A stretch of DNA of 64,000 nt, taken from NCBI GenBank assembly GCA_020354025.1, contig CP070638.1, positions 1,130,250-1,194,249 of the forward strand. The letters are read 5' to 3'. A program made the translations under genes and the position numbers. A model generated the notes under the pieces. The model worked only from the letters and a program-made list of their open reading frames with translations, was not told the DNA's origin and ran no database searches. Of the stretch, positions 4,311 to 53,618 are shown piece by piece. How positions within the stretch are numbered: position 1 is the stretch's first letter; each line of letters starts with the position of its first letter. The stretch comes from Fidelibacterota bacterium. Its GTDB lineage: Bacteria > Fidelibacterota > Marinisomatia > SCGC-AAA003-L08 > TS1B11.

Positions 4311-5819
4311 TTATCCCTGATATGTTTCGACGATTTCAACATCGTTATGATAAACTTTTTCGGTCCCGATGACCTCATAATCCTCCCGGCCCTTACCGAG
4401 GATCAGGAGGATAGAGCGGTCAGTCATGTTGCCCAAGACATTGAGCAGGGCTTCCCGTCGATCGTTAATGACCACGTGTTTGCCGTGGTTCAGCCCTTTC
4501 ATGATGTCGGCGTTGATCTGTTCCAGGCTCTCGGTCCGGGGATTATCAGAGGTAATTATGAGCCGGTCCGAATAGGTCTCAGCCTGGGCGGCCATGAGTG
4601 GACGTTTAGCACGGTCTCTATCGCCACCGCAACCGAAAAGAGTGATGATCTCCACATCCCTGGATGCCAGCTGACGGATTGTGCCCAGCAGATTGGCGTA
4701 GGCATCCGGAGTATGGGCATAATCAATGAAAATTCTTCCCTTAGCGGCGGAAGGAATACACTCCAGTCGGCCAGGAACTGTCGTTACCGTCGAGATACCT
4801 TCCTGAATCGCAGTTATAGGGATACCAAGGGTTAGAGCTGTTGCAGTAGCAGCCAGCAGGTTCTCCAAGTTATACTGCCCCATAAGCCGGCTCTCAATAG
4901 AGAACGCCTGATCCTGATAAACCAGGTTGGCCACTGTGATCTCCAGGCTCAGTCCCATTTCAGTTACCCATAAGTCCGTCTGGCCGGAGCTGTCGGAGAG
5001 GTCTGTATCCTTCCTCAGACTGTAAGTAACCACCGGTCCCTGAGCCGCCTCGATAAAGTACTCCGCATGTGGATCATCCCGGTTGACAATGGCGGGCCGG
5101 TCGGGAGGCAGCAGGTGGAAAAGGCGCAGCTTGGACTCCAGGTAGTCATCCATGTCGTGATGGTAGTCCAGATGGTCCTGGGAGAAATTGGTGAAAACCG
5201 CCAGATTGAAGTCAACATCATCCACACGGCATTGTTTCAGAGCATGAGATGAGACTTCCATCACTATCCTCTGAATATCTTTTTCCCGGAGGTCGGATAA
5301 AATCCGGTGGACCTGATTGGCCTCCGGTGTGGTGAATCCGGTGGACTGCCTGGTCTGGTCCCACCGCAACCCCAGGGTACCGATGACAGCAGTGGGAAGC
5401 TGATGGACTCGAAGGATAGCCGCCAGGATCTCCGAAGTGGTAGTCTTCCCATTTGTACCAGTGATGCCGATGACGGATATCCGCCTGCTGGGGTGCTGAT
5501 AGAAGTTGGCCGCCATGCGGGAATACGCTGCCGGCAGGTTTTCCACCTCGATGTAGGGGCATAAAAAAGTTTGGGATTGCGGCGAAGGACCTACCACTAC
5601 TGCTGCGCCGTTGTCAATAGCTTGCGGGATATACTCGATCCCTTGGACATGCAGCCCGGGGAGAGCCACGAATAGGCCGCCGGGTATCACTTGCCGGGAG
5701 TCGTGAGTCAGGCCGTTGATATCCAGGTCCGGTAGCGGGGCTCTGGTGTGGATTCCGTTCATGATCTGCTGCAGAAACATCACCGCTATTCGCTTTCCGG
5801 GGCGAGCGTGATCAGGCAT
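4311..5819 (-). CDS. murE: UDP-N-acetylmuramoyl-L-alanyl-D-glutamate--2,6-diaminopimelate ligase
   Basis: P-loop GITGTNGKTTT and the MurE-type DNPR motif (ITSDNPRTE). The track start at 5819 overlaps ftsI by 34 nt. An alternative ATG at 5780 (M14) lies just after the ftsI stop. Confidence 0.9.
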   Translation of the reverse strand: MPDHARPGKRIAVMFLQQIMNGIHTRAPLPDLDINGLTHDSRQVIPGGLFVALPGLHVQGIEYIPQAIDNGAAVVVGPSPQSQTFLCPYIEVENLPAAYSRMAANFYQHPSRRISVIGITGTNGKTTTSEILAAILRVHQLPTAVIGTLGLRWDQTRQSTGFTTPEANQVHRILSDLREKDIQRIVMEVSSHALKQCRVDDVDFNLAVFTNFSQDHLDYHHDMDDYLESKLRLFHLLPPDRPAIVNRDDPHAEYFIEAAQGPVVTYSLRKDTDLSDSSGQTDLWVTEMGLSLEITVANLVYQDQAFSIESRLMGQYNLENLLAATATALTLGIPITAIQEGISTVTTVPGRLECIPSAAKGRIFIDYAHTPDAYANLLGTIRQLASRDVEIITLFGCGGDRDRAKRPLMAAQAETYSDRLIITSDNPRTESLEQINADIMKGLNHGKHVVINDRREALLNVLGNMTDRSILLILGKGREDYEVIGTEKVYHNDVEIVETYQG

Positions 5820-36421: not shown

Positions 36422-36670
36422 TTATAGCTGCTGAATTAGGAGTAAAGTCAGAGTAAAAGTCGTTTCCCCGGATACGGCCTGGCTACGCGATCACTCCAGA
36501 TACACCACCATTATATTGCCCCACATCAGACTCATGCTCTGAAAGGATGAGCGCTGGGACACTGAGTGTATCGATACCTCCAATTTATTTGACCGTTTTA
36601 GCGTTCTGCCGCATAATTGGCTTGTTGGGCAACCTTTTAACCTCAGCCAACGTCTAAGAGATAAAGAAAC

Positions 36671-37069
36671 ATGAAAGGACTCGAGAATAAAATGAAGTCA
36701 ATTATGAAAAAGTCGCTTTCTATCTCAGGCATCATATTAGCCATGGTGCTATTGATTAATGCTCTGCCAACCGGTGGTGCTAACCGTGTTGTCTTTGAAG
36801 TAGGGAGAACTTACGGCGTGTATGCCAGTGTAGCGGAGAACGAATCAGTCAGTTGCTTCGACGAGGCACTCTGGAGAGCAATAACCAACGTCGCCGACAT
36901 CGAGGCCGAGCTGCCGAGCAATCTGATTACTCTTGAAGTGGAGATTCGCCCGACCAAACATGTTCCTGTACCGTTGCGGATGGTCTTTACTAGAGAGGCT
37001 CTACGTTGGTTGAAAAAAGGAAAATTGACTCCTGACCGTTTTCTTCGGGAATATGTGCGGTTCATCTAA
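36671..37069 (+). CDS. Hypothetical small secreted protein
   Basis: ORF with a signal-peptide-like segment SISGIILAMVLLINALP. No recognisable family. Lower-GC region. Confidence 0.4.
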   Translation: MKGLENKMKSIMKKSLSISGIILAMVLLINALPTGGANRVVFEVGRTYGVYASVAENESVSCFDEALWRAITNVADIEAELPSNLITLEVEIRPTKHVPVPLRMVFTREALRWLKKGKLTPDRFLREYVRFI

Positions 37070-39935: not shown

Positions 39936-40850
39936 CTAATCCCCCGTCCACTTGATATCAATGCTGCCCAGTCCCACGGAAGCAGTAATCTGCAGGGTGG
40001 GTCGACCGGGTACGTAGTCCTCGCTGCGATATTGGCCGCGGCCTTTCATCACCATATCCCGGGTATCGATAGTTGAAAGGAAATTTTCCTCGGCCTCCAT
40101 TTCTACATTATATCCCCGGGGAATCCACATGGTCACGTTGCCCAGGCCGACGTTCACGTCCACCAACATATCCTGCAGGACCTCGCCGCTGAAGTCGAGC
40201 TCGGCCGAGCCCAGGCCGCAGTCGAATTTGAGACGGTCGGTCCGAGCGTTTGAGAGGTTACGGGCAATCAGCTCTCCCAGGCCATTGTCAACCGAGATCC
40301 GACGCAGTATAACACCGTTGGGAGTGGAGAAATCGAGAGTGGTTTCACCTAGGCCGTTATCCAAATTCAGATCCATCACTTTAAGGTCCCCCAGATCCAA
40401 GTCAGCCTCCCCCAGGCCGCAGGAAAAATCCACCTCGAGAGGAATCCGGGTAGTGAAATATAGTTCGCTTTCGGGCGATTCCATGTCACGCATCCTCAGA
40501 CCTTCCCAGCCTCCGCGGCGCCTGCTCTCGGTGCTAAGCCGAAACCGCGCCAGACCCCCTCTGACCTCGTACTCGACTTTGGGATGGAGATAGTCCTCGT
40601 CGTACTGGATATAGCCGGTAACGGCCTTGGACGGATTACCACGTTCAACGCTGATTTCCCCGAAGCCGAACTCCACTTCAATCTCCATCCGTTCGACTTT
40701 GTCTGTCAGGGCTTCATCGATGGTCAGGATGGTGCGTTCGTCTTCAGGGAATCCCGGTCCATACCTGCCGGTGCCAGAGCTGCCGCCAGTTCCGGCCAGG
40801 ACCACTGACAAGCCAAAGAGGAGTTGTGAGAACCATAGTAGGCGATTCAT
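39936..40850 (-). CDS. Secreted repeat protein with GLG(E/S)xxLD repeats (LiaF/DUF2154 toastrack-like)
   Basis: Signal peptide; repeated CGLGEADLDLG / NGLGETTLDF / NGLGELIARN / CGLGSAELDF / VGLGNVTMWI / VGLGSIDIKW at ~20-aa spacing. Last gene of the ECF operon. Confidence 0.5.
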   Translation of the reverse strand: MNRLLWFSQLLFGLSVVLAGTGGSSGTGRYGPGFPEDERTILTIDEALTDKVERMEIEVEFGFGEISVERGNPSKAVTGYIQYDEDYLHPKVEYEVRGGLARFRLSTESRRRGGWEGLRMRDMESPESELYFTTRIPLEVDFSCGLGEADLDLGDLKVMDLNLDNGLGETTLDFSTPNGVILRRISVDNGLGELIARNLSNARTDRLKFDCGLGSAELDFSGEVLQDMLVDVNVGLGNVTMWIPRGYNVEMEAEENFLSTIDTRDMVMKGRGQYRSEDYVPGRPTLQITASVGLGSIDIKWTGD

Positions 40851-40859
40851 GATTGTTCC

Positions 40860-42446
40860 TTAAAATTCAAGAATCCTTAGGTAAAAGACCCAATCATCCT
40901 TGCCTGCATCGAGTGGTCTGAAGAGTTCTATCCGGGCGTCTTCGTCGCCCATGCTGATCCCTATCGCGTGGTTGCCATTCTTCTGCAGGTCGTTGAAGTA
41001 GTTGCCGGCAAAGAGCCGATCCTGACTGTCCCAATTAAGACCGAAATGCCAGTGGAGGCTGAACATATCCTTTTCTCTGCGCTTCAGCAGGGAGAAGGTG
41101 GCGTTGATCACGGCGTAATGATTACCGGTATCGTAGGCACCATCTCCGTTGAGATCTTTATAGTTATAGCCCTGGACCGAGCCGATGCCGCCTATGGGAA
41201 CCCTATGCTGCAAGCCAATGGCATCGCCTTGGACAGTGCCGGTGCGGGCGTTGAGCCTGATACCCAGCCGGCGGTGGAAGGGGACAAATGCCTCTAGGAC
41301 TATGTCTTCCCGTTTATAATCAAAAGCGCTGCCGGACATGGTTTGGGTATAGGCATAGGACAGGTTGCCCTGGATACGTCGCGGGAAGTAGCCAACAGGC
41401 CGGCCGAGGGTCACCAGGTACTGCAGGTTGACGTCTTTCCCCTCGGTGATACTATAGGCGTCGTTGAATTTCAAATCCTTATAGAATAGGCTCCATTCGG
41501 TGACTTTTTCCATAGTCCGGTGCTTCTCATCTCGGTAGCGGACTTTGAACTCCATGAGGGGAGGCAAGCCCAACACAAAGGAACCTCCATAGCCTTCGGC
41601 TTCATAAAAATCATACCAGTCCCGGTGGATTAGGAAGGCCCCCAGTGAGTTCTCTCTAGGCGTAACCCGCCAGCCATCGTCATTGCGGGACTCTTTGTGA
41701 CCCTCTACCAGAAAACCGATCCGCCCCCGCCAGAAGTATTCGCCGATACCCAGACGACCATACCATTCGCGAGCGCCAAATGCACGGCCGAAGAAACCAT
41801 AGATATTGAACCCGGGAATATCGTCGGTGTCCGGGTGAAATGGGATATAGAGTGCCAGTCCTTCGGCCCGGTTGTACCTGAAGCTTACGCGGTTGAAGAC
41901 CTCGAAGTCGGGCCGTGTGCGTCTCCGGGCGTAGGGCTGCCAGATAGATCTTTCGTCATCTACATCTCTGGTCACCCACTCGTCTTCTTCGGTCTCCTCG
42001 TCACGCCAGTCGAGGCGTTCATCCTTATCCTCATCGTAACCGAAGATTTCCCGGGCCTCTTCCCGGGCAAGGCTGACTTTGCCCCGATTCACCTCCAGCA
42101 CATCGCCGGTGACCTGGGCCTCCTCGCTGCGACTGATCTTGCCGCCGAGGGCTACGATAGCACCTTCCACCTGAGCCGTGGGCAGAAGTTCCACGTCGCC
42201 ACCCAGAACGGTAATACGGCCAGTGACCCGACCGGCCACGGTGAGGTTGCCGCCGATGACCCGAATATTGCCGGAACGTACTTCCCCTTCCGGAATAACC
42301 AGGTCGTTGAAAATTTTTAACTCGCCGGAAAGACTTTCTCTGGTTTCGTCCGGCTGGTCACCTTCGATCGGTTCCTGGGCCATAGCTGGCAGCCAGGTTA
42401 GCAGGAGGAGGACCAGTACTCCGGTGGGTGAGAATAGGACTCGCAT
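40860..42446 (-). CDS. Secreted protein: N-terminal bactofilin-like beta-helix repeats, acidic linker, C-terminal Omp85-like beta-barrel
   Basis: Signal peptide MRVLFSPTGVLVLLLLTWLPAMA. The segment GNIRVIGGNLTVAGRVTGRITVLGGDVELLPTAQVEGAIVALGGKI resembles polymer-forming (bactofilin/DUF583) repeats. Acidic linker DEDKDERLDWRDEETEEDEW. C-terminal half: IGGIGSVQGY resembles the Omp85 L6 (V/L)RG(F/Y) region. The protein ends ...YLRILEF. Confidence 0.5.
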   Translation of the reverse strand: MRVLFSPTGVLVLLLLTWLPAMAQEPIEGDQPDETRESLSGELKIFNDLVIPEGEVRSGNIRVIGGNLTVAGRVTGRITVLGGDVELLPTAQVEGAIVALGGKISRSEEAQVTGDVLEVNRGKVSLAREEAREIFGYDEDKDERLDWRDEETEEDEWVTRDVDDERSIWQPYARRRTRPDFEVFNRVSFRYNRAEGLALYIPFHPDTDDIPGFNIYGFFGRAFGAREWYGRLGIGEYFWRGRIGFLVEGHKESRNDDGWRVTPRENSLGAFLIHRDWYDFYEAEGYGGSFVLGLPPLMEFKVRYRDEKHRTMEKVTEWSLFYKDLKFNDAYSITEGKDVNLQYLVTLGRPVGYFPRRIQGNLSYAYTQTMSGSAFDYKREDIVLEAFVPFHRRLGIRLNARTGTVQGDAIGLQHRVPIGGIGSVQGYNYKDLNGDGAYDTGNHYAVINATFSLLKRREKDMFSLHWHFGLNWDSQDRLFAGNYFNDLQKNGNHAIGISMGDEDARIELFRPLDAGKDDWVFYLRILEF

Positions 42447-42449
42447 GGT

Positions 42450-43697
42450 TTACTGTTCTCCTTTCATAATCTTGATTTCACCTGTCGTGGTTTCAATAAC
42501 GATGCTGTGGAATGGTCTGTCGGTGGAATAGGTTGCCAGCGTATTGCCGTTGTCCTTCTTATAGGTGAAGTCTACATTACCGCTAATGCGATCCACGGCA
42601 TAACGGGGCGAATACCCGAAAACTTTGGCGGTAATGTCAACCGGCCTTTTGGAGTAGTAGTTCACGTACACGTCCCCGGTTGACGTGGTGAGAGTGGATT
42701 CTTCCTTTCCAGGTTCCTCCAGAACCATCTCATAAATCTCAATGTCCCCGCTACCGGACTTGGCTCTTACCGCTCCAGTAATCCGACGGATATCGATATC
42801 ACCGGAGGCGCTGAAAAGGATTGCGTCTCCGTGAATACGTTCCAGTGAGAGATTCCCACCGCTGCTGGCCGCTTCAACACCCCCTGTGAGGTTTTCAGCA
42901 GAGATGTCTCCACCACCGGTCATGAGGTTAGCCTGTGCGGAAACATCTGCGATATCAATGTCTCCACCACCGGTACGCGCTTCTACGCTGGTGCCCTCCA
43001 GGCTCCTGAGATCAATATCCCCACCACCGGTGTTGATCGTGAAGTTGCCCTTACTTGTCCAGAAATCAATGTCCCCAGCACCGGTGGATGCGCTGATCCT
43101 TCCCTCCACGGTGCGACCTTCGATATCCCCGCCACCTGTGAATAGATCCACTTGGCCTTCCACCTTGAACACGTCGATATCTCCGCCTCCGGTATGGGCC
43201 TTAACCCTACCTGCCGAGTTGGACAAGGCAATGTCACCACCACCCGTCTTGGTCTCCAGGTCGCCCTGGAGGTCCGACATGTCCACATTCCCGCCGTAGG
43301 AGTGGATGATCACGTTGAAAGTTTTGGGCACCCGTGTCTTGTAGTGGAATGAAACATTGCGGTTACTCACCTTACCCACTTTGAAGATGTAGGCCTCACC
43401 ACTGGCTGATGGGGGGCTCAACTCACCCTGTATCCGCTCAATGATTTCTTGGGCCTCGTCCTTATGTTTAGTTTTAACGGTGATCTTCTCTTCGATCACA
43501 ATCCGTTGGACATCGGTACCCATGAGGACTATATCCCCTCGGAGTGCTTTCATATGCAACGTAGCCTTGGGTTCCACGTCCAGGCGATGAACTATTACAC
43601 CCTGATACTTGCCTTGATAATCCCGTAGTTCGGGTAGTGACTGCCCGGTTAGGGGAATACAGATAATGAGCGCCGTTATAATGGATCTTACTATCAT
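42450..43697 (-). CDS. Signal-anchored protein with ~9 tandem GGGDI repeats (DUF4097/toastrack-like)
   Basis: N-terminal hydrophobic anchor. Repeats TGGGDIALS / TGGGDIDVF / TGGGDIEGR / TGAGDIDFW / TGGGDIDLR / TGGGDIDIA / TGGGDISAE / SSGGNLSLE / ASGDIDIRR at ~18-20 aa periodicity. ATGA overlap with the upstream gene. Confidence 0.6.
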   Translation of the reverse strand: MIVRSIITALIICIPLTGQSLPELRDYQGKYQGVIVHRLDVEPKATLHMKALRGDIVLMGTDVQRIVIEEKITVKTKHKDEAQEIIERIQGELSPPSASGEAYIFKVGKVSNRNVSFHYKTRVPKTFNVIIHSYGGNVDMSDLQGDLETKTGGGDIALSNSAGRVKAHTGGGDIDVFKVEGQVDLFTGGGDIEGRTVEGRISASTGAGDIDFWTSKGNFTINTGGGDIDLRSLEGTSVEARTGGGDIDIADVSAQANLMTGGGDISAENLTGGVEAASSGGNLSLERIHGDAILFSASGDIDIRRITGAVRAKSGSGDIEIYEMVLEEPGKEESTLTTSTGDVYVNYYSKRPVDITAKVFGYSPRYAVDRISGNVDFTYKKDNGNTLATYSTDRPFHSIVIETTTGEIKIMKGEQ

Positions 43698-44611
43698 AGT
43701 TGCGAATCTAGACGTTCTTCTTCTTGAGATTCGGGCGCCTGTGAAAGAACCTGATAGGCCTGGTAGCGCACGCTTTCCATGGGGTCCATGCGGGAGACCA
43801 GCAGTAGAGCCGACCGGACCGACAGATCGTCCAGAAAATAAGCCAGGTTTTCCACCGCGGCCAGTCGCACTCCCTCGTTGTCGTCCTCCATGACTGTTTT
43901 GACGAGCGCGTCCTTAACAAGCGGTGACTGCACTCCGTGCAGACTCTTGAGTATGGATAGTCGGACGCCTGGATTTTCGTCTGTCAGCAGGGCTGAGATG
44001 AGAGCCATCATGGTGGATTCCTTCTCCGGCAAACCCGGCGTACCTCCCAGAATGCGTGCTGATTGCAGGCGTTGCCCCGGATTGGGATCCTTTACTAGTA
44101 CATATTCTAGGGCTGCCAGTATATCCTCGCGGTCTGCGGATCCGGTGAGTTTCATCTCTTGACCCATGGTGAGGTTGAGCTCCACTGGAGTATCCGGATC
44201 ATCCAGGAGGTTCACATCGATATCTTCTAGCTGTCCGGACCGAATAAGCTCCGCTAGATCGGTCTGGGAGATCTGGCTCACCTGTTGGGCGGCGGTGGGG
44301 AAAGCCGAAGTGACGGGACGGGTGATAATAAACCTGCCCACCAGGATACCCAGGATCAGAGCAGTGCTCCAGACCAGGATCGGCCTGGCTGGCATCCACA
44401 GGTAGGGGAGTTCCTCCCACCACAGCTGGAGCCGCTCCCACAAGCGCGACAGCAGGCCGGCCTCTTCTGTTACCGCGATGGCGCCCTTGAGTCTTACTCG
44501 TTGGTCAAGCAGCCACTCATCGCTTACACGATAGACAGGTTCGATCCCGGCGAAGATTTCCCTGATCTGCTCGTCAGATAGGCTGGGTGTTCGTTGAACT
44601 TTTCTAGGCAT
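43694..44611 (-). CDS. Putative anti-sigma factor: single-pass membrane protein with extracytoplasmic HEAT-like repeats
   Basis: Overlaps the ECF sigma stop by 8 nt. Central TM helix PILVWSTALILGILVGRFII. C-terminal repeats DENPGVRLSILKSL / DDNEGVRLAAVENL / DPMESVRYQAYQVL. No HxxxCxxC zinc motif. The role is inferred from position and topology. Confidence 0.45.
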   Translation of the reverse strand: MPRKVQRTPSLSDEQIREIFAGIEPVYRVSDEWLLDQRVRLKGAIAVTEEAGLLSRLWERLQLWWEELPYLWMPARPILVWSTALILGILVGRFIITRPVTSAFPTAAQQVSQISQTDLAELIRSGQLEDIDVNLLDDPDTPVELNLTMGQEMKLTGSADREDILAALEYVLVKDPNPGQRLQSARILGGTPGLPEKESTMMALISALLTDENPGVRLSILKSLHGVQSPLVKDALVKTVMEDDNEGVRLAAVENLAYFLDDLSVRSALLLVSRMDPMESVRYQAYQVLSQAPESQEEERLDSQL

Positions 44612-45140
44612 AAGCTGCCAGGTCCTTCCTCAGTTTAAGGGTTGCCCGGTGTAGGTACCGCTTGATGGTACCGGTGGTGCAACCCAGGAGTATGGCAATG
44701 TCCTTGATTTTATGCCCCTGGTAATAGCGCATGACAAAAACAGTCCGCTGTTTCGGGGGCAAGGCCTCAACGGCTTCAATGATGTTCTGTTGCTGTTCGG
44801 TACGCTCCCGATTCTCATCGTTGTAGGAGTCGTGATAGCCCTCTTCCAGGGAGACGTTTTCCAGGTGATAACGCTGCCGGCTGCTGCGGTAGCTGAAACA
44901 GGTATTGGCCGTAATGCGATAAAGCCAGGTGTAGAACTCGCTCTTAAACTCGAAGGAGGGGAGATTCTTCCAGGCTTTAATGAAAACTTCTTGGTAAATA
45001 TCTTCTGCATCTTCCTTGTTCTTCAAAAGTTGCATCGCCACGGCCATGATTCTCGCATCGTACATGGCCACCAGTTCGTGGAACGCTCGCTGATCGCCTC
45101 CTTGGGCTGATCTGATTAATGCGACGGTCTTTTCGTCCAC
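44604..45140 (-). CDS. ECF (group IV) RNA polymerase sigma-70 factor
   Basis: 178 aa. Region 2 (EDIYQEVFIKAWKNL..., FYTWLYRITANT) and region 4 (LPPKQRTVFVMRYYQGHKIKDIAILLGCTTGTIKRYLHRA). GTG start at 45140. Confidence 0.9.
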   Translation of the reverse strand: MDEKTVALIRSAQGGDQRAFHELVAMYDARIMAVAMQLLKNKEDAEDIYQEVFIKAWKNLPSFEFKSEFYTWLYRITANTCFSYRSSRQRYHLENVSLEEGYHDSYNDENRERTEQQQNIIEAVEALPPKQRTVFVMRYYQGHKIKDIAILLGCTTGTIKRYLHRATLKLRKDLAAYA

Positions 45141-45258
45141 GTCCCGCCTTTCACACCTGCTTAGACCCTCTTGACGAGGATTTGGTTGTCATCAGAATTG
45201 CACCCTTTAGTATTAGTTCTGTTGAAAACAGAATTACCTCCCTGAAGATAGTAAACTG

Positions 45259-45286
45259 AGACGGTGTCTGGGGAGAAAATGTTGCC
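45259..45286 (-). promoter_or_regulatory. Candidate ECF-type promoter (GGCAAC-N17-CGTCT) upstream of the ECF sigma gene
   Basis: The minus strand reads GGCAAC attttctccccagacac CGTCT about 120 nt upstream of the GTG. This AAC/CGT architecture is typical of autoregulated ECF promoters. It is a single occurrence judged by eye. Confidence 0.3.
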
Positions 45287-45297
45287 CGTAAATGTTT

Positions 45298-45454
45298 CTG
45301 GTTTCGAGGTCCTGGTTTCGAGTTTCTAGCCCCGCCAACGGCGGGGTAGTGCAACGTAGCGGAGCCTTCCCCGCCTTCTCTTTCCCCTCTCTCAGGAGAG
45401 AGGGGACGACACGAAGTGAGAGCCTGTCCCGACCTTGCGTCGGGAGGGTGAGTG
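45298..45454. repeat. Cluster of direct repeats and GC-rich hairpins (REP-like module)
   Basis: CTGGTTTCGAG occurs twice (45298-308, 45312-322). Hairpins: CCCCGC/GCGGGG (45330-46), with a third complementary CCCCGCC at 45369-75; CCCCTCTC/GAGAGGGG (45384-91 / 45398-405); TCCCGAC/GTCGGGA (45427-33 / 45439-45). GGGTGAGTG follows. Confidence 0.7.
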
Positions 45455-45702
45455 ATCTTAAAAGCCAGTTCGCCAGCTGCCTCACACCGGTCTTCCTTAG
45501 CAGGGCTAACGGTAGGACAGCGGCTAGTGCGAGTTTTCACTTGCCATATTCAGCTTCATACCCACATTCGGCGCAAAGTCAGTTTCCGATAATCGTATTT
45601 ATCTGAAGAGTTCCCAGGCTCGATGCCGCCTGATTCTTGCCCACTCGCGCCTTCTCACCCTCCACTATCCTTCATCCTTCGAAGCCGTTGTTCCCGTTTG
45701 AG

Positions 45703-45783
45703 CCCTTCGCGCACTTTGCGCCCTTTGCGCCCTTCGCGCCCTTCGCGCCCTTTGCGCCCTTCGCGCCCTTCGCCCCTCTGCGC
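45703..45783. repeat. 9-bp tandem repeat array, about 9 units of CCCTTYGCG
   Basis: Units in register from 45703: CCCTTCGCG, CACTTTGCG, CCCTTTGCG, CCCTTCGCG, CCCTTCGCG, CCCTTTGCG, CCCTTCGCG, CCCTTCGCC, CCTCTGCGC. Confidence 0.9.
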
Positions 45784-45794
45784 CAGCTGAAACA

Positions 45795-45896
45795 GGGTGA
45801 GTTCGCGCACCAGGCGCACCAGGCGCACCAGGCGAACGACAAGTCCTTCCCTTTTCCATATATTCCCGCCATGACCAAAGCGCGGACCAGGATCGC
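45795..45896 (+). repeat. Composite repeat element, copy B: GGGTGAGTTC flank, 9-bp tandem array (GCGCACCAG x3 + GCGAACGAC), AAGTC, conserved downstream boxes
   Basis: GGGTGAGTTC (45795-804). Array units: 45805-13, 45814-22 and 45823-31 GCGCACCAG; 45832-40 GCGAACGAC. Downstream boxes: AAGTC; ATATTCC (45860-66, the same 14-nt spacing after AAGTC as in copy A); GCCATGA (45868-74); GATCGC (45891-96). Confidence 0.8.
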
Positions 45897-46094
45897 CTGC
45901 TACCCCCAGCACGTCCGGGAGGATGCCTTCGCCTACTACTGCGCCGGGCATACCCGGGCGGAGGGGGAGCCGGAACAGGAAACGGCTCAGGAGGCTGCGA
46001 AATGATTTCTGATCGCAGCGCGCTTTTTTTAGCGCCCGCAATATTGGTTCATCGCTCCCCTCGGCAGGCATTGGCCATTTTCTGGCCATTTGCT

Positions 46095-46177
46095 GGGTAT
46101 CCGGTGGGCCTTACCGGGGTATCCGGTAGACCTTACCGGGGTACCCGGTAGACCTTGCCGGGGTTATCGGTGGGTAG
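46095..46177. repeat. 22-bp tandem repeat (3.7 units), each unit containing the palindrome CCGGTA-N5-TACCGG
   Basis: Units: GGGTATCCGGTGGGCCTTACCG (46095-116), GGGTATCCGGTAGACCTTACCG (46117-138), GGGTACCCGGTAGACCTTGCCG (46139-160), GGGTTATCGGTGGGTAG (partial). A perfect palindrome lies at 46123-46139. The array sits 145-225 nt upstream of apbE. Confidence 0.85.
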
Positions 46178-46216
46178 TGAAGGGGTTTCTCCGGGGCGTT
46201 GACGGGGTCGTGGCTG

Positions 46217-46290
46217 GCCTCAAGCTTCAAGTCCCAAGCCCCATGTCTCAAGCCCCAAGCCTCAAGCCCCCAGCCTCCAATTCCCCATTC
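46217..46290. repeat. C/A-rich degenerate short repeats (CAAGCCCC-like)
   Basis: CTCAAGCTTCAAGTCCCAAGCCCCATGTCTCAAGCCCCAAGCCTCAAGCCCCCAGCCTCC, directly upstream of apbE. Confidence 0.7.
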
Positions 46291-46319
46291 CCGGTCCTGG
46301 CGGAGGTATATTCAGACCT

Positions 46320-47351
46320 ATGACTTTTGCACCGAGCAGCAGCGTTGCTGAGCCGCGGGGACGTTTCCTGCCGCTCGTGTTAATTAGCCTGGCTCTAATG
46401 GCAGGGGCCCTGGCGACCTCTGGATGCAAACCACGTTTCACCCCGGTTACAGTAGTTGAAACCCACTTCTTTCAGTCGCCGGTTGTCCTCAGCATGGGCG
46501 CAGGAAGCCCGGAAGAGCTGCAGGTGGCTGCGACACTGGCCAGCTCCGAGATTCGCCGATTAGAAAGGGTATTTAATCCATTAAATCCCGATGGGGGTCT
46601 ATATCAGCTCAACGAGACCAGAAGTATTACCGATTCGGAGCTTTACCCGATCCTGGAACGGGCTTATCAGGTCTCACAGTTGACCAACGGCGGCCTGAAC
46701 ATCTTCATGGGCTATCTGGAGCGGGCTTACGGTTTTGACAAGCGCTTCCCTCGTCCCCCGGATCGGAGTGCAGTGCGGGAGCTGTTGCTGCCCTTGCGGC
46801 GGGCAAGCATTCAGTTTGTCCCGGATGACTATCAGATGAAGATGCCCAATGATGCCTTTGCCATTTCGTTGACGGGTATCGAGGAGGCGTATACGGCTGA
46901 TCAGGCGTTGGCCCATCTGGTTTTTGCCGGGATATCGAACGCTATGGTACAGGTAGGTCCCCATGTGGCCTGCGGGGGGTCGCCCGACGGTTTGGGATGG
47001 CCAATCAGCGTCAGGGATCCAGTATCGGGAGAAACGGCAGTGCGGTTGTTTGTAGAAAACAGCGGCGTCGCCATCGCCTCCATCAACGACCAGGCCTACA
47101 CCTTCCGGGATAGCACCTACTACAATCACCTGGACCCGACCACAGGGCGTCCAGCCCGCTCACTCAGGTCGGTAACCGTCGTAGCACCTTCCTGCGAACT
47201 GGCTGGCGGCCTGGCTCGGGGCATTTTCGTCATGAATCCCGAAGATGGCTTGCGGCTGCTGAACGACCTGCCCGAGATAGATGGGATTATCCTGGATTCT
47301 GAAGGGGGGATAACCATATCGGATAGCCTGTTCATCTGGATAGGAAAATAA
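46320..47351 (+). CDS. apbE: ApbE-family FAD:protein FMN transferase (lipoprotein)
   Basis: Lipobox LATSGC. ApbE-like motifs GIEEAYTAD, ASINDQAYTF and NHLDPTTGRPA (H-x-x-DP-x-TG). Confidence 0.75.
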   Translation: MTFAPSSSVAEPRGRFLPLVLISLALMAGALATSGCKPRFTPVTVVETHFFQSPVVLSMGAGSPEELQVAATLASSEIRRLERVFNPLNPDGGLYQLNETRSITDSELYPILERAYQVSQLTNGGLNIFMGYLERAYGFDKRFPRPPDRSAVRELLLPLRRASIQFVPDDYQMKMPNDAFAISLTGIEEAYTADQALAHLVFAGISNAMVQVGPHVACGGSPDGLGWPISVRDPVSGETAVRLFVENSGVAIASINDQAYTFRDSTYYNHLDPTTGRPARSLRSVTVVAPSCELAGGLARGIFVMNPEDGLRLLNDLPEIDGIILDSEGGITISDSLFIWIGK

Positions 47352-47433
47352 GACCATGCCTATCTTTCGAGTGCAGGCGGTTCATTGCCGTATCTATCGG
47401 CGGAATACCCACAGTTGATGAGGGTGATTGAAG

Positions 47434-48576
47434 ATGGCTGGTATGGTTATTTGGATTTTACTGCTGCTGACCACCTTGGTATTTGCCTGGTGGCTGCTCA
47501 GTTGGGGCATGATCTTCCTGCGAGCCACAGGGGCATTGCTGTATCTGTCTGGGGGAATGAATCCTTTTCTGAGGTGTTTGTATTACCGGATCGAGGTACA
47601 TACCGAACACTACCCCCATGGCAAGGACGGGCTACTGCCCTACCGTGTTTATCGACCCCTAACCCGTTCAGTCGCACCAGCCCTGGTGATTTATCACGGC
47701 GCTACTCCCCACGGTGAAGAGCACCCAGACTTGGACAACCTAGCTCGGGCCCTGGCCCATATCGGGCTGATAGTCTTCATACCCCGGCTACCCCGACTAA
47801 AGGCGGTCATAATTGACGAGAGTAACTTAGACTCTATAACGACCTTCTATCGGTATATCCAAGGGCATGAGCGAATCTGCCCGGGCTATATTAGTGTGAC
47901 TGGGACCAGTTTCGCAGGCGGCATGCTACTCAAAGCCCTGCTGGAGGAGGATATGCACATGCCATCACCAAGGGCAGTATTCCTCTATGGCACCTACTGC
48001 GATCTTGAGACCACTCTCCGATTCATTCTTACCGGGTCAGTAGTTGAAGAGGGGGTGGAAGTTACCGTTGAGCCTGACCGTTGGGGCCAGGTGATCTTTT
48101 TCTATAACTACCTTGAGCATATCACCCAATCATTTAACCGGGAAACAATGCAAGAAGTGCTGGGCTACTACATCACCGACAGGATTGCTGAAGGGGATGA
48201 GGCCAGGGCTAGGCTGTCCATCAATGAACGCCGGATAGCAGACCTCATACTAACCCCAAGTAATCCCGAAAGCAACGCCCTGGCCGAAGAAGTTCTCCAG
48301 CACGCCCGCCCACTTATTGGAAAACTCTCCCCGTCCAGGTTCTACTCCCGGATTCATTTCCCATTCTGGGTTCTACACGGCCGTAGCGATACAATGGTGC
48401 CCTACACCGAAGCCCTGGCTCTGAAACGGCTCATGCCCAGCCAGGTTCGCTTGTACGTGTCCACCCGGTATGGTCATAAGAAGCCGGGCCACGAAAGCAG
48501 CTTATGGCGGTCTCTTCGGGATATGGTGGGGCTGGTTGTTTACCTGGGACGATTCCTGTACGCCGTGAAGGAATAG
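47434..48576 (+). CDS. Membrane-anchored alpha/beta-fold hydrolase
   Basis: N-terminal TM helices; a nucleophile-elbow-like VTGTSFAGG (G-x-S-x-G) region; C-terminal HGRSD...H pattern typical of the dienelactone hydrolase / prolyl oligopeptidase type. I used the ATG at 47434; the track has the TTG at 47428. Confidence 0.6.
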   Translation: MAGMVIWILLLLTTLVFAWWLLSWGMIFLRATGALLYLSGGMNPFLRCLYYRIEVHTEHYPHGKDGLLPYRVYRPLTRSVAPALVIYHGATPHGEEHPDLDNLARALAHIGLIVFIPRLPRLKAVIIDESNLDSITTFYRYIQGHERICPGYISVTGTSFAGGMLLKALLEEDMHMPSPRAVFLYGTYCDLETTLRFILTGSVVEEGVEVTVEPDRWGQVIFFYNYLEHITQSFNRETMQEVLGYYITDRIAEGDEARARLSINERRIADLILTPSNPESNALAEEVLQHARPLIGKLSPSRFYSRIHFPFWVLHGRSDTMVPYTEALALKRLMPSQVRLYVSTRYGHKKPGHESSLWRSLRDMVGLVVYLGRFLYAVKE

Positions 48577-49883: not shown

Positions 49884-49922
49884 AAAAAGGTCTCACGACC
49901 AGGTGAGACCTTTTTTGTTTTT
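49884..49922 (+). terminator. Rho-independent terminator
   Basis: The stem GGTCTCAC (49889-96) pairs with GTGAGACC (49903-10), has a 6-nt loop, is flanked by AAAAA and is followed by TTTTTTGTTTTT. Confidence 0.85.
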
Positions 49923-49935
49923 CCTATTACACGCA

Positions 49936-51267
49936 ATGCATTATTCAACCGGCTACTACGCCCGCTTGTCGGTTCCAGCATGCAAGTGCCTGACCAATTG
50001 GTTGCTTATCTTCCTGCTGATCACCGCCCGGCTCCTCGCCCAGGCTGAGGGGCCACTCATTACTAGTGTGGTGGTTGAGGGCAACAGGGTGACTCGTGAG
50101 TATATCATCACCAGGGAACTGTCTCATCCACTAGATCAGCCGTTCGACTCCAGCCTGGCCCTTGATGACCGCAATCGCCTCTACAACCTGGGGATCTTCG
50201 AATGGGTAGACGTGTACCCCCGACCAACAACGTCTGGGGAAGCAGCACTGATAGTAGCGGTGGTGGAGACTTTCCGGAAGATCCCTTACCCTACTTACTA
50301 TCACCTTAAGGACCTTGGCTGGGCCTACGGCGGAGGCCTTATGGTGACCAATTTCAGGGGGCTAAACCAGAGTCTGGACGTCGGTGGTACGATAGGGGCT
50401 GAGCTATCCTACTACCTGCTGTTCACTGATCCCTGGTTTATGGGGAACCGCGTATCTTTAAGTAGTCAGGTGATGCAAATCAGCCGTAACCACCCGGAAT
50501 ACAGCTTCCGCTATAGGAAACGGAACTTCAAGGTGGGCATTGGGAAGTACTTCCTGGATAAGACGGTCTATATTGCTGGAGCAACTACTTTTGAAGACCG
50601 CAGGGTGATGTGGCCGCCGGATGATCCGCTAAAGCTGGTCTGGGGGGACCTTCGCCACCGTATATTTACCGCTAGGGGGATGCTACTGTGGCGCACCACC
50701 GATATCTGGCGTGATCCGACGACTGGATTTCAGCTCCAGCTCGATCTTGCCCCGGTATGGGGGCTGGATTCGGATTCGCCGACCTATGGGCTGGTTAAGA
50801 GCCAGGGGGCGGTGTTTGTTCCCCTGTGGAAAGGCTACCGGCCGCTGGTCTGGGGGGCAGTCCTCGCGGTTTCTCACGCCACTCAACCAACACCCATTTA
50901 CTTGACCCAGTACGTCGGTGGCCAATGGGTTCGAGGCTACAACGTAGCCCCCGAGCGGAATCCACTTGAGATTCAAGACCGCCTGAAAGGCTCAAGTATA
51001 GTTTTCACCAGCATGGAGCTGCGCCAGACCCTGTTCCCTAGGCGATTGTGGCAGCAGACGGAGGTCGGACTATCGGGGGTGCTGTTTGTCGATGCCGGGT
51101 GGGGCTATGGTCCCGGGATACCCCTCCGGCAGGCCTTACCTTTAGTGGGCTATGGCGTTGGGCTGAGGTTCTTCTTCCCCAATATCGATGCCCTGGCCCT
51201 GGATGTGGGTACCAACCCCTATGACCATATCCTGAGGTACCACCTGAACCTCACCCACAAGTTCTAG
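49936..51267 (+). CDS. Omp85/BamA-family outer membrane protein with a single POTRA-like domain
   Basis: The POTRA-like segment ITSVVVEGNRVTREYIITRELSHPLDQPFDSSLALDDRNRLYNLGIFEWVDV is followed by a beta-barrel ending ...HLNLTHKF. The start is uncertain: the track ORF start at 49903 lies inside the upstream terminator, so I used the ATG at 49936. Confidence 0.65.
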   Translation: MHYSTGYYARLSVPACKCLTNWLLIFLLITARLLAQAEGPLITSVVVEGNRVTREYIITRELSHPLDQPFDSSLALDDRNRLYNLGIFEWVDVYPRPTTSGEAALIVAVVETFRKIPYPTYYHLKDLGWAYGGGLMVTNFRGLNQSLDVGGTIGAELSYYLLFTDPWFMGNRVSLSSQVMQISRNHPEYSFRYRKRNFKVGIGKYFLDKTVYIAGATTFEDRRVMWPPDDPLKLVWGDLRHRIFTARGMLLWRTTDIWRDPTTGFQLQLDLAPVWGLDSDSPTYGLVKSQGAVFVPLWKGYRPLVWGAVLAVSHATQPTPIYLTQYVGGQWVRGYNVAPERNPLEIQDRLKGSSIVFTSMELRQTLFPRRLWQQTEVGLSGVLFVDAGWGYGPGIPLRQALPLVGYGVGLRFFFPNIDALALDVGTNPYDHILRYHLNLTHKF

Positions 51268-51392
51268 TCCTTCGATACCCGCGCCGACAACCACCGGATA
51301 TTCAGATCTGCCGCGAAGTATCGGGACAACCTTTTGCTAGTTGGTACGGTCATACATATAATAAAATAAGCGAAAATAATACCTGGTATGGA

Positions 51393-53618
51393 ATGTGGAG
51401 GGTGAGTCAAAAGACAAACATCCTGGCGGGATTTTTTATCCTGGTGGGTTTTGCTTACGCAGAGGTGCGGATCGTGCCCATCAGGACCGACACGCCACCG
51501 GTTCTTGACGGCCGCCTTGACGATGATGTATGGCAGCAGGCACCTGGCTATGAGGACTTCGAGACCTTTCAACCCGACTACGGCAAACCTCTGAGCGAGC
51601 GGACAATCGCCTGGGTGGCCTATGATCGGGGAAATCTGTATTTTGCTTTCAAGTGTTACGATTCACGACCAGATTTGATTAAGTCCACCGTCACCAAATG
51701 GGACAACGTGTTCCCCGAAGACTGGGTGGGAGTAGCCCTGGACGCTCTTAATGACCAGCAAAGCGCCTACGTCTTCGCGGTCAATGCCCACGGCTCCCAG
51801 GGGGATCTCCTGACAGATAGCAATGGTAACGGGAACGGCTCGGAGGATTATATCTGGGACGCTGCCGGGATGCTGGATTCCGACGGCTTTTCGGTGGAGA
51901 TACAGGTCCCCTTACAGAGTATTAGATTTAATATGGACCGGGAAGTGGCAATGGGCATTGCTTTTGTCCGGCGCATCAGCCGCAGTTCCGAGCAGGCTGC
52001 TTATCCATCCTTCCAGCCGGAAGAGGGTGCCATGACCACCCAATTGGGGAAGGTGGTTTTCCACGACTTGCAGTACAGGCGGACCTACGAAATCCTGCCC
52101 TCGTTCACCCAGTCGGAAAACAGTGGCGCCGAGGAGGGCAAACTGCAGTGTATTGATGAGGACTCCGGATCCGATCCGGGTCTTACGGCCAAAGTAGGGC
52201 TCACACCGACCTTGACGGTGGATCTGACCGTAAATCCCGACTTCAGCCAGATCGAGTCCGATGCCAGCCAGGTAGACGTGAACCTGCGCTACCCCAACTT
52301 CTATCCCGAGAAACGCCCTTTCTTCCTGGAAGGCATCAAGAGTTTCGATATGGCGGGTATCGGAAGTTTCGGCGCCATCTCACAAGTGGTACACACGCGC
52401 ACCATCGCCGACCCCAGCTTCGGCTTGAAGCTTTCCGGTAAGCTGGGTCGTGCCAACTCCCTGGCGGCCATTCTCGCCCGGGACGAATCACCCATCTATG
52501 AGGAAGACGGCGATCAGCCAGCAAACTTCGGCATCCTACGGTACAAACGACTGCTGAAGGATGAGAGCTACCTCGGCGGGATTGTAACCATCCGGGAACA
52601 TGACAGCGACTACAACCGGGTGGCGGGTGTGGACGGCCTCTGGCGGTTGACCGGGACGATGAGGATCGAAGGCAATGTTTTCTACGCGCGAAACAAAGAT
52701 CCAGAAAGCGGCGAGGTTACCGAGGCCCACAATGCCGACCTGTCATGGTCCTATGACAACCGGAACTACACCGTGCTGGCAGGAATCCATGACATCAGCA
52801 AGGACTTCAGGCTTGATACTGGCTATATCCCCCGTGATGGCACCAAGACCGTGAACTTCCTGGGCCTGCGGACTTTCTACTACGAATCCAAGCTCCTGCA
52901 GAGAATAACCGTGGGATACTGGGGCTATATGCAGCGGGATAAGTACTTCGATATGAACGACGGCCTTCAAAATATCAACGTTTGGATCGGTATGGTCCGG
53001 TCCATTCAGTGTGAATGGAATTATACTTTCGGATCGGAAGTATACGAGGGTAAATCATTTGACCGCAGCGGATTCAAGATTAGAATGAATGGGCAAGTTC
53101 TGAAACCGTTGTATATCTCCATCGGGCTGGGAAATGAAGGCAGTCCCTACTACGATGATCCCGATGATCCTATCCAGGGGGATGCCGCCTCTTGGTGGGC
53201 TTTCTTCAATTTCCAGCCCACTGAGAATTTCAGTACAGAGTTCAATACGATTCGCACAGATTTCACCAGCCGCGATGGCCGCCTGCAGCTCTATGATTAT
53301 CAGATCTATCGCAGCAAGACCACCTACCAGTTGAATAAATACCTGTTTATCAGGGGCATCCTGGATTACACCTACGTGCAGTTTCCTGACTATGGAATCA
53401 AGTATCCCGAGGAAGGGGATGATGATTCAAAGGGCCTGACAGCCGAATTCCTAGTCGGCTTCACCTATTTCCCCGGAACGGTGATCTACATAGGGTATGG
53501 TTCCCGGCTGGAAAACCTGGAGTACGATACTACCGAGCTGGATTACCTGCCAACAAAAAGTCTGACAGAGATGAAGCGGGGGCTGTTTTTCAAGGCCTCC
53601 TACAACTGGCGGCTTTAG
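51393..53618 (+). CDS. DUF5916 / CBM9-like domain protein (predicted outer-membrane associated)
   Basis: Signal peptide. The N-terminal DGRLDDDVWQQAPGYEDF motif is typical of CBM9-like/DUF5916 proteins. The long beta-rich C-terminus ends ...FKASYNWRL. Confidence 0.5.
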   Translation: MWRVSQKTNILAGFFILVGFAYAEVRIVPIRTDTPPVLDGRLDDDVWQQAPGYEDFETFQPDYGKPLSERTIAWVAYDRGNLYFAFKCYDSRPDLIKSTVTKWDNVFPEDWVGVALDALNDQQSAYVFAVNAHGSQGDLLTDSNGNGNGSEDYIWDAAGMLDSDGFSVEIQVPLQSIRFNMDREVAMGIAFVRRISRSSEQAAYPSFQPEEGAMTTQLGKVVFHDLQYRRTYEILPSFTQSENSGAEEGKLQCIDEDSGSDPGLTAKVGLTPTLTVDLTVNPDFSQIESDASQVDVNLRYPNFYPEKRPFFLEGIKSFDMAGIGSFGAISQVVHTRTIADPSFGLKLSGKLGRANSLAAILARDESPIYEEDGDQPANFGILRYKRLLKDESYLGGIVTIREHDSDYNRVAGVDGLWRLTGTMRIEGNVFYARNKDPESGEVTEAHNADLSWSYDNRNYTVLAGIHDISKDFRLDTGYIPRDGTKTVNFLGLRTFYYESKLLQRITVGYWGYMQRDKYFDMNDGLQNINVWIGMVRSIQCEWNYTFGSEVYEGKSFDRSGFKIRMNGQVLKPLYISIGLGNEGSPYYDDPDDPIQGDAASWWAFFNFQPTENFSTEFNTIRTDFTSRDGRLQLYDYQIYRSKTTYQLNKYLFIRGILDYTYVQFPDYGIKYPEEGDDDSKGLTAEFLVGFTYFPGTVIYIGYGSRLENLEYDTTELDYLPTKSLTEMKRGLFFKASYNWRL

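Follow-up and report, generated by a model that had tools for sequence, protein, structure and literature searches.

A five-gene ECF sigma factor operon conserved across Marinimicrobia encodes a HEAT-domain putative anti-sigma factor, two toastrack proteins and a beta-helix/Omp85-type barrel

The 64,000-nucleotide stretch of contig CP070638.1 analyzed here (Fidelibacterota bacterium, assembly GCA_020354025.1; hereafter the window) contains a compact operon of five genes on the minus strand (39936–45140), headed by a gene for an extracytoplasmic function (ECF) sigma factor. The junctions from the sigma gene to gene 5 measure -8, -4, +3 and +9 nt in the list of open reading frames (ORFs), and both these values and the gene order are exactly those of an initial annotation made from the sequence alone. 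That annotation had also assigned domains to the five proteins and had suggested profile hidden Markov models as the way to check them; the Pfam and NCBIfam families are those it had called, and with the structural models they uphold all five assignments. The genes, in order of transcription, are:

44604–45140, minus strand: sigma gene, ECF sigma factor of 178 aa with a GTG start
43694–44611, minus strand: gene 2, single-pass membrane protein of 305 aa with a periplasmic HEAT domain, putative anti-sigma factor
42450–43697, minus strand: gene 3, exported DUF4097 toastrack (beta-helix) protein of 415 aa
40860–42446, minus strand: gene 4, beta-helix fused to an Omp85-type barrel, without POTRA, 528 aa
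39936–40850, minus strand: gene 5, exported DUF2154-type toastrack protein (Toast_rack_N and LiaF-like_C) of 304 aa

The operon is real and is conserved phylum-wide in Marinimicrobia (SAR406/Fidelibacterota). Synteny in relatives, the check that the initial annotation had set for its proposal, extends across the whole phylum: the five-gene order is kept in every Marinimicrobia locus that is uninterrupted and of sufficient length (including L001–L004, L007, L009–L016, L018, L021, L023, L025 and L026), down to protein identities of 25–30%. The junction pattern is nearly identical across the syntenic loci, and the 8-nt overlap of the sigma gene and gene 2 is present in all relatives. Because the same order recurs in all long, uninterrupted loci of the Marinimicrobia type, the layout is more than a chance arrangement. 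The sole long locus without all five genes, L005 (CP070656), has no detected sigma gene upstream and carries a 100-N assembly gap (3938–4038) that breaks gene 2; in the close relative L021 the sigma gene (5224–5759) is split by a frameshift into two tblastn pieces, either an assembly error or a pseudogene. Two complete Fidelibacterota genomes each gave one locus in the homologue scan, and in the deep-branching loci the operon is positioned after rplU-rpmA and mdh. Within the window operon, no minus-strand terminator was found and sigma-70 promoter-like sites are no more frequent than expected, suggesting that the five genes constitute one tightly coupled transcription unit; there is no Rfam match between 39000 and 47000.

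The first gene product is an ECF (group 4) sigma-70 factor containing only the sigma-2 and sigma-4 domains (Pfam Sigma70_r2, 62.5 bits, E 3e-17; Sigma70_r4_2, 66.4 bits, E 2e-18), and it passes the NCBIfam sigma70-ECF threshold (TIGR02937, 115.3 bits against a cut-off of 42.9). It falls narrowly below the cut-off of the Bacteroidetes-type family TIGR02985 (124.2 against 126.4), scores 102.6 against a cut-off of 130 for the PG0214/GFO_1088 family, and is neither an RpoE equivalog (TIGR02939, 103.2 against 236.15) nor a SigW equivalog (TIGR02948, 103.9 against 243.1). The closest solved structures are those of AlgU-type (6in7), SigW (5wuq) and E. coli sigma-E (1or7) factors.

The sigma gene is preceded by a bipartite motif 16–22 nt before its start codon in 14 of 14 loci, with spacers of 16–17 nt that are unrelated in sequence, and a fifteenth locus (L025) has the variant GTCACA. 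Alignment of the upstream regions gives the general form TGACAACC-N16/17-GTC(T/A/G)(A/T)A. AAC-containing -35 and GTC-containing -10 sequences are typical ECF promoter elements. Autoregulation is common among ECF sigma factors, which require promoters close to consensus (PMC7776599). The window site, the only match to the strict pattern in the 64 kb (0.00 expected), is the presumed autoregulatory promoter of the operon. A candidate promoter proposed in the initial annotation, GGCAAC-N17-CGTCT, does exist in the sequence, but the conserved promoter lies elsewhere. The two sites are:

45161–45191, minus strand: conserved ECF-type promoter TGACAACC-N17-GTCTAA, ending 20 nt before the sigma GTG start
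45257–45286, minus strand: initially proposed promoter GGCAAC-N17-CGTCT, some 120 nt upstream of the sigma gene, the motif itself at 45259–45286

Shifted by one base, the initially proposed site reads CAACA-N17-GTCTCA, a weak look-alike of the conserved consensus. It is degraded (GGCAAA) in L021, whose sigma factor is ~88% identical, and is absent at that position from L001, L007, L010 and more distant loci. As it is unconserved beyond relatives with ~88% identical sigma factors it was rejected as the main promoter, and is at best a secondary one.

A relaxed pattern, CAACC-N16/17-GTCWWA, has three matches in the window against 0.12 expected, a count reached in 0 of 100 shuffles, and all three are intergenic and face a gene start. 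Further promoters of this type are found in the window at two sites in addition to that of the operon, one of them conserved in orthologues; the initial annotation had advised a genome-wide search, for its own GGCAAC-N17-CGTC motif. These sites and the genes they face are:

51327–51354, plus strand: second promoter, CAACC-N17-GTCATA, 38 nt upstream of the ATG of the DUF5916 gene
51393–53618, plus strand: DUF5916 gene, 741 aa, Pfam DUF5916
36630–36657, plus strand: third promoter, CAACC-N17-GTCTAA, 13 nt upstream of a 132-aa ORF
36671–37069, plus strand: 132-aa ORF whose N-terminus resembles a signal peptide

The motif recurs upstream of the DUF5916 orthologue in 7 of 7 metagenome loci encoding 61–85% identical proteins. 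These loci were picked by protein similarity alone and include two samplings of one identical upstream sequence (L033 and L034), with an unrelated spacer. Over ~396 kb of window-related loci, the relaxed pattern is elsewhere almost confined to sigma upstream regions. The DUF5916 gene is a candidate member of the regulon, and its product is assumed to be an outer-membrane protein.

Gene 2 is translationally coupled to the sigma gene and encodes a protein with a short cytoplasmic part, a single membrane passage and a periplasmic solenoid. In the AlphaFold2 model, ~69 cytoplasmic residues containing three short helices of modest confidence are followed by one transmembrane (TM) helix (residues ~70–96), a disordered, poorly conserved and variable linker, a small alpha/beta unit made of a helix and a three-stranded sheet (116–157), and eight HEAT-type helices forming about four repeats (162–290), the last with a predicted local distance difference test (pLDDT) score above 90. 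Membership of the HEAT/PBS-HEAT repeat group is clear from Pfam (HEAT_2, 54.2 bits against a cut-off of 27.7, E 1.8e-14), and the fold matches only alphaRep/HEAT, PBS-HEAT and CpcE/F-like proteins in Foldseek searches. At 78% mean identity the HEAT domain is the most conserved part of the protein, the cytoplasmic part reaching 55%. Just before the membrane helix lies an invariant WLxxQRxxLxGA motif. The translation has no Cys or His within residues 1–100, in agreement with the earlier observation that a HxxxCxxC zinc motif is missing, and the protein does not belong to the class I (zf-HC2/RskA-type) anti-sigma factors. Deep-branching homologues (L003, L018 and L026) have an extra N-terminal helix, LYVLxALxxxExxAFE, and the only hint of a known anti-sigma domain is a sub-threshold RskA_N match in the L003 homologue (E 0.11, 13 bits against a cut-off of 27). 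From its position, its 8-nt overlap with the sigma gene, its topology and the WLxxQRxxLxGA motif, gene 2 is a putative anti-sigma factor.

Genes 3 and 5 both encode members of the toastrack (DUF4097/DUF2154/DUF2807) group. Gene 3 matches DUF4097 (71.8 bits against a cut-off of 22.9, E 7e-20; Pfam), and gene 5 passes the Pfam thresholds of both LiaF-like_C (33.9 against 29) and Toast_rack_N (25.2 against 22) and matches the solved toast-rack structure 4QRK (E 7e-19). Neither is a LiaF or LiaG protein proper: gene 3 scores 38.7 bits on the LiaG equivalog (cut-off 285), gene 5 scores 30.5 on the LiaF_C_term equivalog (cut-off 57), and gene 5 is without the LiaI-LiaF 4-TM domain. The GLG repeats noted initially in gene 5 are present (five units); those of gene 3, put at about nine GGGDI units, number six when counted exactly and 12 with a looser G-G-D-I-like pattern. 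The gene 3 product was also described as signal-anchored, which is probably wrong, since the N-termini of its orthologues end in A/G/S followed by Gln. The same pattern, a short hydrophobic segment and then A/G/S-Gln, is seen in orthologues of gene 4 and in some of gene 5, and the gene 3 N-terminus itself reads ...LTG|Q, as at a cleavable signal. Such a Q-rule is the look of cleaved signal peptides in the Bacteroidetes group. Genes 3–5 thus appear to encode proteins with cleavable signal peptides that are exported and soluble or located in the outer membrane rather than anchored, and the two toastrack proteins are probably periplasmic, given these signal peptides and the missing LiaI-LiaF 4-TM domain. 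The ORF list shows no kinase or response-regulator gene in the operon.

Gene 4 encodes a fusion of two domains, and its AlphaFold2 model (30 homologues; mean pLDDT 78) comprises a signal peptide, a beta-helix (43–119), a disordered acidic linker (121–173; 20 D/E among the 55 residues 121–175) and a 16-strand barrel (188–525). The top 50 PDB matches of this model in Foldseek are all BamA/TamA barrels (E 1e-13 to 1e-10, probability 1.0), placing the C-terminal part in the Omp85 superfamily, and precomputed PF01103 or PF04519 matches are carried by gene 4 homologues. Its C-terminus reads ...LRILEF; outer-membrane barrels usually end with an aromatic residue. No POTRA domain is matched in Pfam and the model has the beta-helix and disordered linker in its place, but a POTRA-bearing relative of this barrel type does exist (P0094). 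The beta-helix, the most conserved segment of the protein (78%), scores narrowly below the Bactofilin cut-off (PF04519, 24.9 bits against 27.9), and with a signal peptide before it and an outer-membrane barrel fused behind it, it is better described as a bactofilin-like beta-helix than as a cytoskeletal bactofilin. A common origin of this helix with the beta-helices of genes 3 and 5 was considered and found unsupported (hhalign probabilities below 1%).

The Omp85 signature positions at the tip of loop L6 and in the FxDxG of strand beta13 (PMC4490367) can be aligned in gene 4, where they read VQGY and HWHFG (residues 419–430 and 465–474; window 41025–41190). Within the main Marinimicrobia clade the L6 Arg is found in 0 of 30 sequences and the beta13 Asp in 1 of 30, being replaced by Gln/Gly and His/Gln respectively, and both residues are kept in 61 of 96 sequences of the wider beta-helix/barrel family. 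Their loss was rejected as a marker of linkage to the sigma factor, as L025 has the full operon and keeps both.

The beta-helix/Omp85 fusion is a large unnamed family that extends across the phyla of the Fibrobacteres-Chlorobi-Bacteroidetes (FCB) group and relatives. Word-indexed searches with gene 4, as a sequence and as a profile, gave named homologues only from Candidatus Marinimicrobia/Neomarinimicrobiota/Fidelibacterota, but a restriction to this phylum was overturned when 1.84 billion cluster representatives were searched exhaustively with HMMER, giving 4515 relatives with E ≤ 1e-3, roughly 870 with E ≤ 1e-10 and 128 with E ≤ 1e-30. An alignment of 96 sequences (the window protein and 95 of the best representatives of at least ~350 aa) includes 85 with both beta-helix and barrel, some having two or three helix units, and the named members of the family are from Marinimicrobia, Calditrichota, Bacteroidota, Eisenbacteria, Zixibacteria and KSB1. 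Gene 5 directly follows the barrel gene in Marinimicrobia, Calditrichota and KSB1. The neighborhoods outside the five-gene operon are:

Calditrichota (L024): barrel, then a LiaF_C toastrack gene; no sigma gene
KSB1 (L030): barrel, LiaF_C toastrack, DUF4097 and DUF4097; no sigma gene
L027: triple-helix barrel, LiaF_C and DUF4097 genes in its vicinity, and an adjoining gene for a protein with a type IX secretion (T9SS) signal
Zixibacteria (L029): kinase, sigma-54 regulator, barrel, DUF4390
Bacteroidota (L028): barrel alone

The occurrence of barrel-toastrack neighborhoods without a sigma gene in other phyla suggests that the barrel-toastrack pair is the older core, and that its Marinimicrobia form has the sigma factor, the HEAT protein and a fixed order of five genes in addition.

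Two other arrangements involve relatives of gene 4. DUF4390, HAMP histidine kinase and sigma-54 response regulator genes flank the Zixibacteria barrel gene (L029, 3043–8415) and lie again in L025 (9943–13049), where they are 1.5 kb downstream of the operon; they may represent a second regulatory link for the barrel family. In a Candidatus Eremiobacteria locus (L020, 4666–6738), genes for an ECF sigma factor and a zf-HC2 anti-sigma factor are followed, with a 4-nt overlap, by one for a 288-aa secreted protein, one stretch of which is 38% identical to the gene 4 beta-helix. It provides a second example, independent of the first, of a sigma/anti-sigma pair with a neighboring secreted bactofilin-like helix.

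We propose that this is a self-regulated envelope ECF sigma operon of Marinimicrobia that works as follows, and put the probability of this reading at roughly 0.55. The ~70-residue cytoplasmic N-terminus of gene 2 would hold the sigma factor at the inner membrane, with the highly conserved HEAT solenoid offering a protein-binding surface on the periplasmic side. The products of genes 3–5 would be exported, the two toastrack proteins remaining in the periplasm and the POTRA-less barrel residing in the outer membrane with its beta-helix hung into the periplasm on the long acidic linker. Together with the HEAT domain these would form a periplasm-spanning assembly that shields the anti-sigma factor while the outer membrane is intact. 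A disturbance would free the HEAT domain, leading to degradation of the anti-sigma factor and release of the sigma factor, which is predicted from the promoter sites to transcribe from CAACC-N17-GTCWWA before its own operon, the DUF5916 gene and the small secreted protein gene. In evolutionary terms, Marinimicrobia would have given an older barrel-toastrack module of the FCB group a sigma/anti-sigma pair dedicated to it. The predicted locations agree with a protein set spanning the inner membrane, periplasm and outer membrane, as the initial annotation had supposed in describing a trans-envelope module. Conservation peaks at the HEAT solenoid in gene 2 and at the beta-helix in gene 4 (78% each), which suggests that these are protein contact surfaces, and by analogy the toastrack proteins may bridge or modulate these surfaces. 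LiaF and VraT, both toastrack proteins, are membrane-proximal signaling modulators (PMC11237479), as are the DUF2154 inhibitors of LytTR systems (PMC6193735). The conserved HEAT solenoid and the promoter sites of this scheme come from the sequences, we infer every protein contact, the signal and the proteolytic release, and sensing by the exported proteins is purely conjectural.

Several observations weigh against this proposal. The barrel-toastrack pair occurs without sigma or anti-sigma genes in Calditrichota and KSB1, and the barrel alone in a Bacteroidota genome, implying an independent function of the exported module that need not involve signaling. Gene 2 has no Pfam match to an anti-sigma domain, zf-HC2 included; the N-terminus of a deep-branching homologue has no sequence match in the PDB; and Foldseek with the whole gene 2 model returned HEAT proteins only and no anti-sigma fold. 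The operon contains no protease gene, and the 132-aa ORF behind the third promoter has no Pfam match and no orthologue among the fetched loci. Rather doubtful is the specific chain in which outer-membrane integrity or assembly state is reported from the barrel beta-helix through the periplasmic toastracks to the HEAT domain of an anti-sigma factor of novel type, and from there to the ECF sigma factor; the sigma-less pairs would then be its evolutionary precursor.

The main rival, itself unlikely, is that the sigma/anti-sigma pair senses alone, through the HEAT domain or the membrane, and that genes 3–5 are solely its output, a stress-induced structural or repair module of the outer membrane and periplasm without feedback. 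The existence of the barrel-toastrack pair on its own in Calditrichota (L024) and KSB1 (L030), and beside other genes in L027, is consistent with this, as is the position of genes 3–5 behind a sigma-dependent promoter with no other promoter or terminator detected; the other predicted regulon genes, the small ORF with a signal-peptide-like N-terminus and the gene for the assumed outer-membrane DUF5916 protein, also fit it. However, a gene order and overlaps that are fixed phylum-wide would be expected of stoichiometric partners more than of a loosely assembled regulon; the conservation of the periplasmic HEAT domain is much higher than ligand-sensing domains usually show, which suggests a fixed protein partner; and known toastrack proteins are signaling modulators. 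Two further explanations are less likely than this one, and are taken up below with the known systems they resemble.

The closest functional analogues of the proposed operon are probably rpoE-rseA-rseB-rseC (rpoE-rseABC) of E. coli and algU-mucABCD of P. aeruginosa, in which an ECF sigma gene is likewise followed by genes for a single-pass anti-sigma factor and periplasmic modulators in one autoregulated operon. Among solved structures, the Marinimicrobia sigma factor is nearest in sequence to those of AlgU-type, SigW and sigma-E proteins, and its AAC-containing -35 and GTC/TCTAA-like -10 elements resemble known ECF consensus sequences. It nonetheless misses the RpoE and SigW equivalog cut-offs; gene 2 lacks RseA/MucA and zf-HC2 domains and has a HEAT solenoid as its periplasmic part; toastrack beta-helix proteins take the place of RseB/MucB as modulators; and the operon includes an Omp85-type barrel.

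The toastrack genes recall the LiaIH-LiaGFSR system of B. subtilis, VraTSR of S. aureus and the toastrack partners of the phage shock protein (PSP) system, where DUF4097 (as in LiaG) and DUF2154/LiaF_C domains are similarly found beside a membrane-bound envelope-stress regulator. Here that regulator is an ECF sigma/anti-sigma pair and not a two-component system, the toastracks have signal peptides and no 4-TM domain, and PspA and PspC are absent. LytTR systems with DUF2154 inhibitors (HdrRM type) also couple a DUF2154 toastrack genetically to a membrane-sequestered regulator that is inactive in the basal state, but their regulator is of the LytTR type and the toastrack is part of the inhibitor, whereas here it is exported as a protein in its own right and encoded next to a putative ECF anti-sigma factor; the LytTR study found no anti-sigma factor carrying DUF2154 (PMC6193735).

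The gene 4 barrel shares its 16 strands with the Omp85 superfamily (BamA/TamA, noNterm Omp85, PlpD of type Vd, and TpsB), and most members of its wider family keep the L6 (L/V)RG(Y/F) and beta13 FxDxG signatures, but a bactofilin-like beta-helix and acidic linker stand in place of POTRA. This superfamily includes TpsB translocators of beta-helical substrates and PlpD-type passenger fusions (PMC4104836, PMC11116518), and the barrel could in principle export its own beta-helix, the toastracks or both to the surface in the manner of two-partner secretion (TPS) or type Vd systems, for example as adhesins, with the sigma factor only timing the event. While the order of N-terminal beta-helix, linker and barrel and the signal peptides on all three partners would suit such secretion or display, Pfam and the model show neither POTRA nor TPS domains, the beta-helix is only ~80 residues long, the main Marinimicrobia clade has substitutions at both the L6 Arg and the beta13 Asp, and toastrack domains are otherwise tied to signaling and not to adhesion, making this explanation quite improbable.

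FecI-FecR-FecA (FecIRA) and Bacteroidetes SusC-type signaling systems also encode together an ECF sigma factor, a single-pass anti-sigma factor and a barrel with an N-terminal periplasmic domain, but the barrel there is a 22-strand TonB-dependent transporter, compared with the 16-strand Omp85 type here, which has no TonB box. Strict cell-surface signaling, with the barrel as an outer-membrane receptor whose beta-helix signals directly to the HEAT anti-sigma factor as FecA does to FecR and the toastracks as adaptors only, could draw on this shared layout, on the flexible attachment of the beta-helix and on the beta-helix and HEAT domains being the most conserved segments of their proteins; it is very unlikely, as the five proteins have no TonB_dep_Rec, STN or FecR matches in Pfam, and so neither a TonB-dependent receptor nor a FecA-type signaling domain, the barrel family mostly occurs without sigma factors, and there is no evidence for a ligand.

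All parts of the operon are from known families, but no description of the five-gene combination was found in the literature, in line with the initial annotation, which could name no described system. The main text of the ECF classification 2.0 (PMC7826278) does not mention DUF4097, bactofilin, LiaF or Marinimicrobia, and 'heat' occurs in it only as heatmap. The 2014 survey of the Omp85 superfamily mentions neither bactofilin nor DUF583 and does not name the gene 4 architecture, and no paper in the library searched contains both bactofilin and Omp85.

Other features of the window surround the operon and its candidate regulon. Directly upstream of the DUF5916 gene is a gene (49903–51267, plus strand) for a conventional POTRA+Omp85 protein of 454 aa, such that the window encodes two different Omp85-type barrels within 10 kb. 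A 382-aa ORF (47428–48576, plus strand) has an N-terminal hydrophobic segment, a GTSFAGG (GxSxG-like) motif and no Pfam match, and its product may be a membrane-bound hydrolase. The 1.17-kb gap (45150–46320) between the sigma operon and a divergent ApbE gene (46320–47351) contains dense arrays of short tandem repeats:

45702–45777: 9-mer, 8.6 copies
45805–45834: 9-mer, 3.3 copies
46095–46164: 22-mer, 3.2 copies
46217–46280: 7/14-mer

The equivalent gap in L021 contains a defense-like insert (GmrSD_N, AAA_15/21 and one unknown gene), and the gap between the sigma operon and ApbE has the appearance of a hypervariable site.

The Marinimicrobia (SAR406) are uncultured bacteria that abound in the ocean, and almost nothing is known about their regulation. 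As a fixed feature of the phylum, located beside ribosomal protein genes in its deepest branches, the operon is likely one of the principal envelope-stress circuits of this group. With its HEAT domain in the periplasm, gene 2 is a candidate for a novel kind of anti-sigma factor, and gene 4 belongs to a large unnamed family of Omp85-type barrels of the FCB group in which a beta-helix replaces POTRA and toastrack genes are recurrent partners. Should feedback from the exported proteins to the sigma factor prove real, toastracks would act in the periplasm, although the main survey predicts these domains to be intracellular (PMC11237479), and an Omp85 barrel would have a signaling rather than an assembly role. 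With the promoter consensus CAACC-N17-GTCWWA, the regulon could be predicted in any genome or metatranscriptome of Marinimicrobia.

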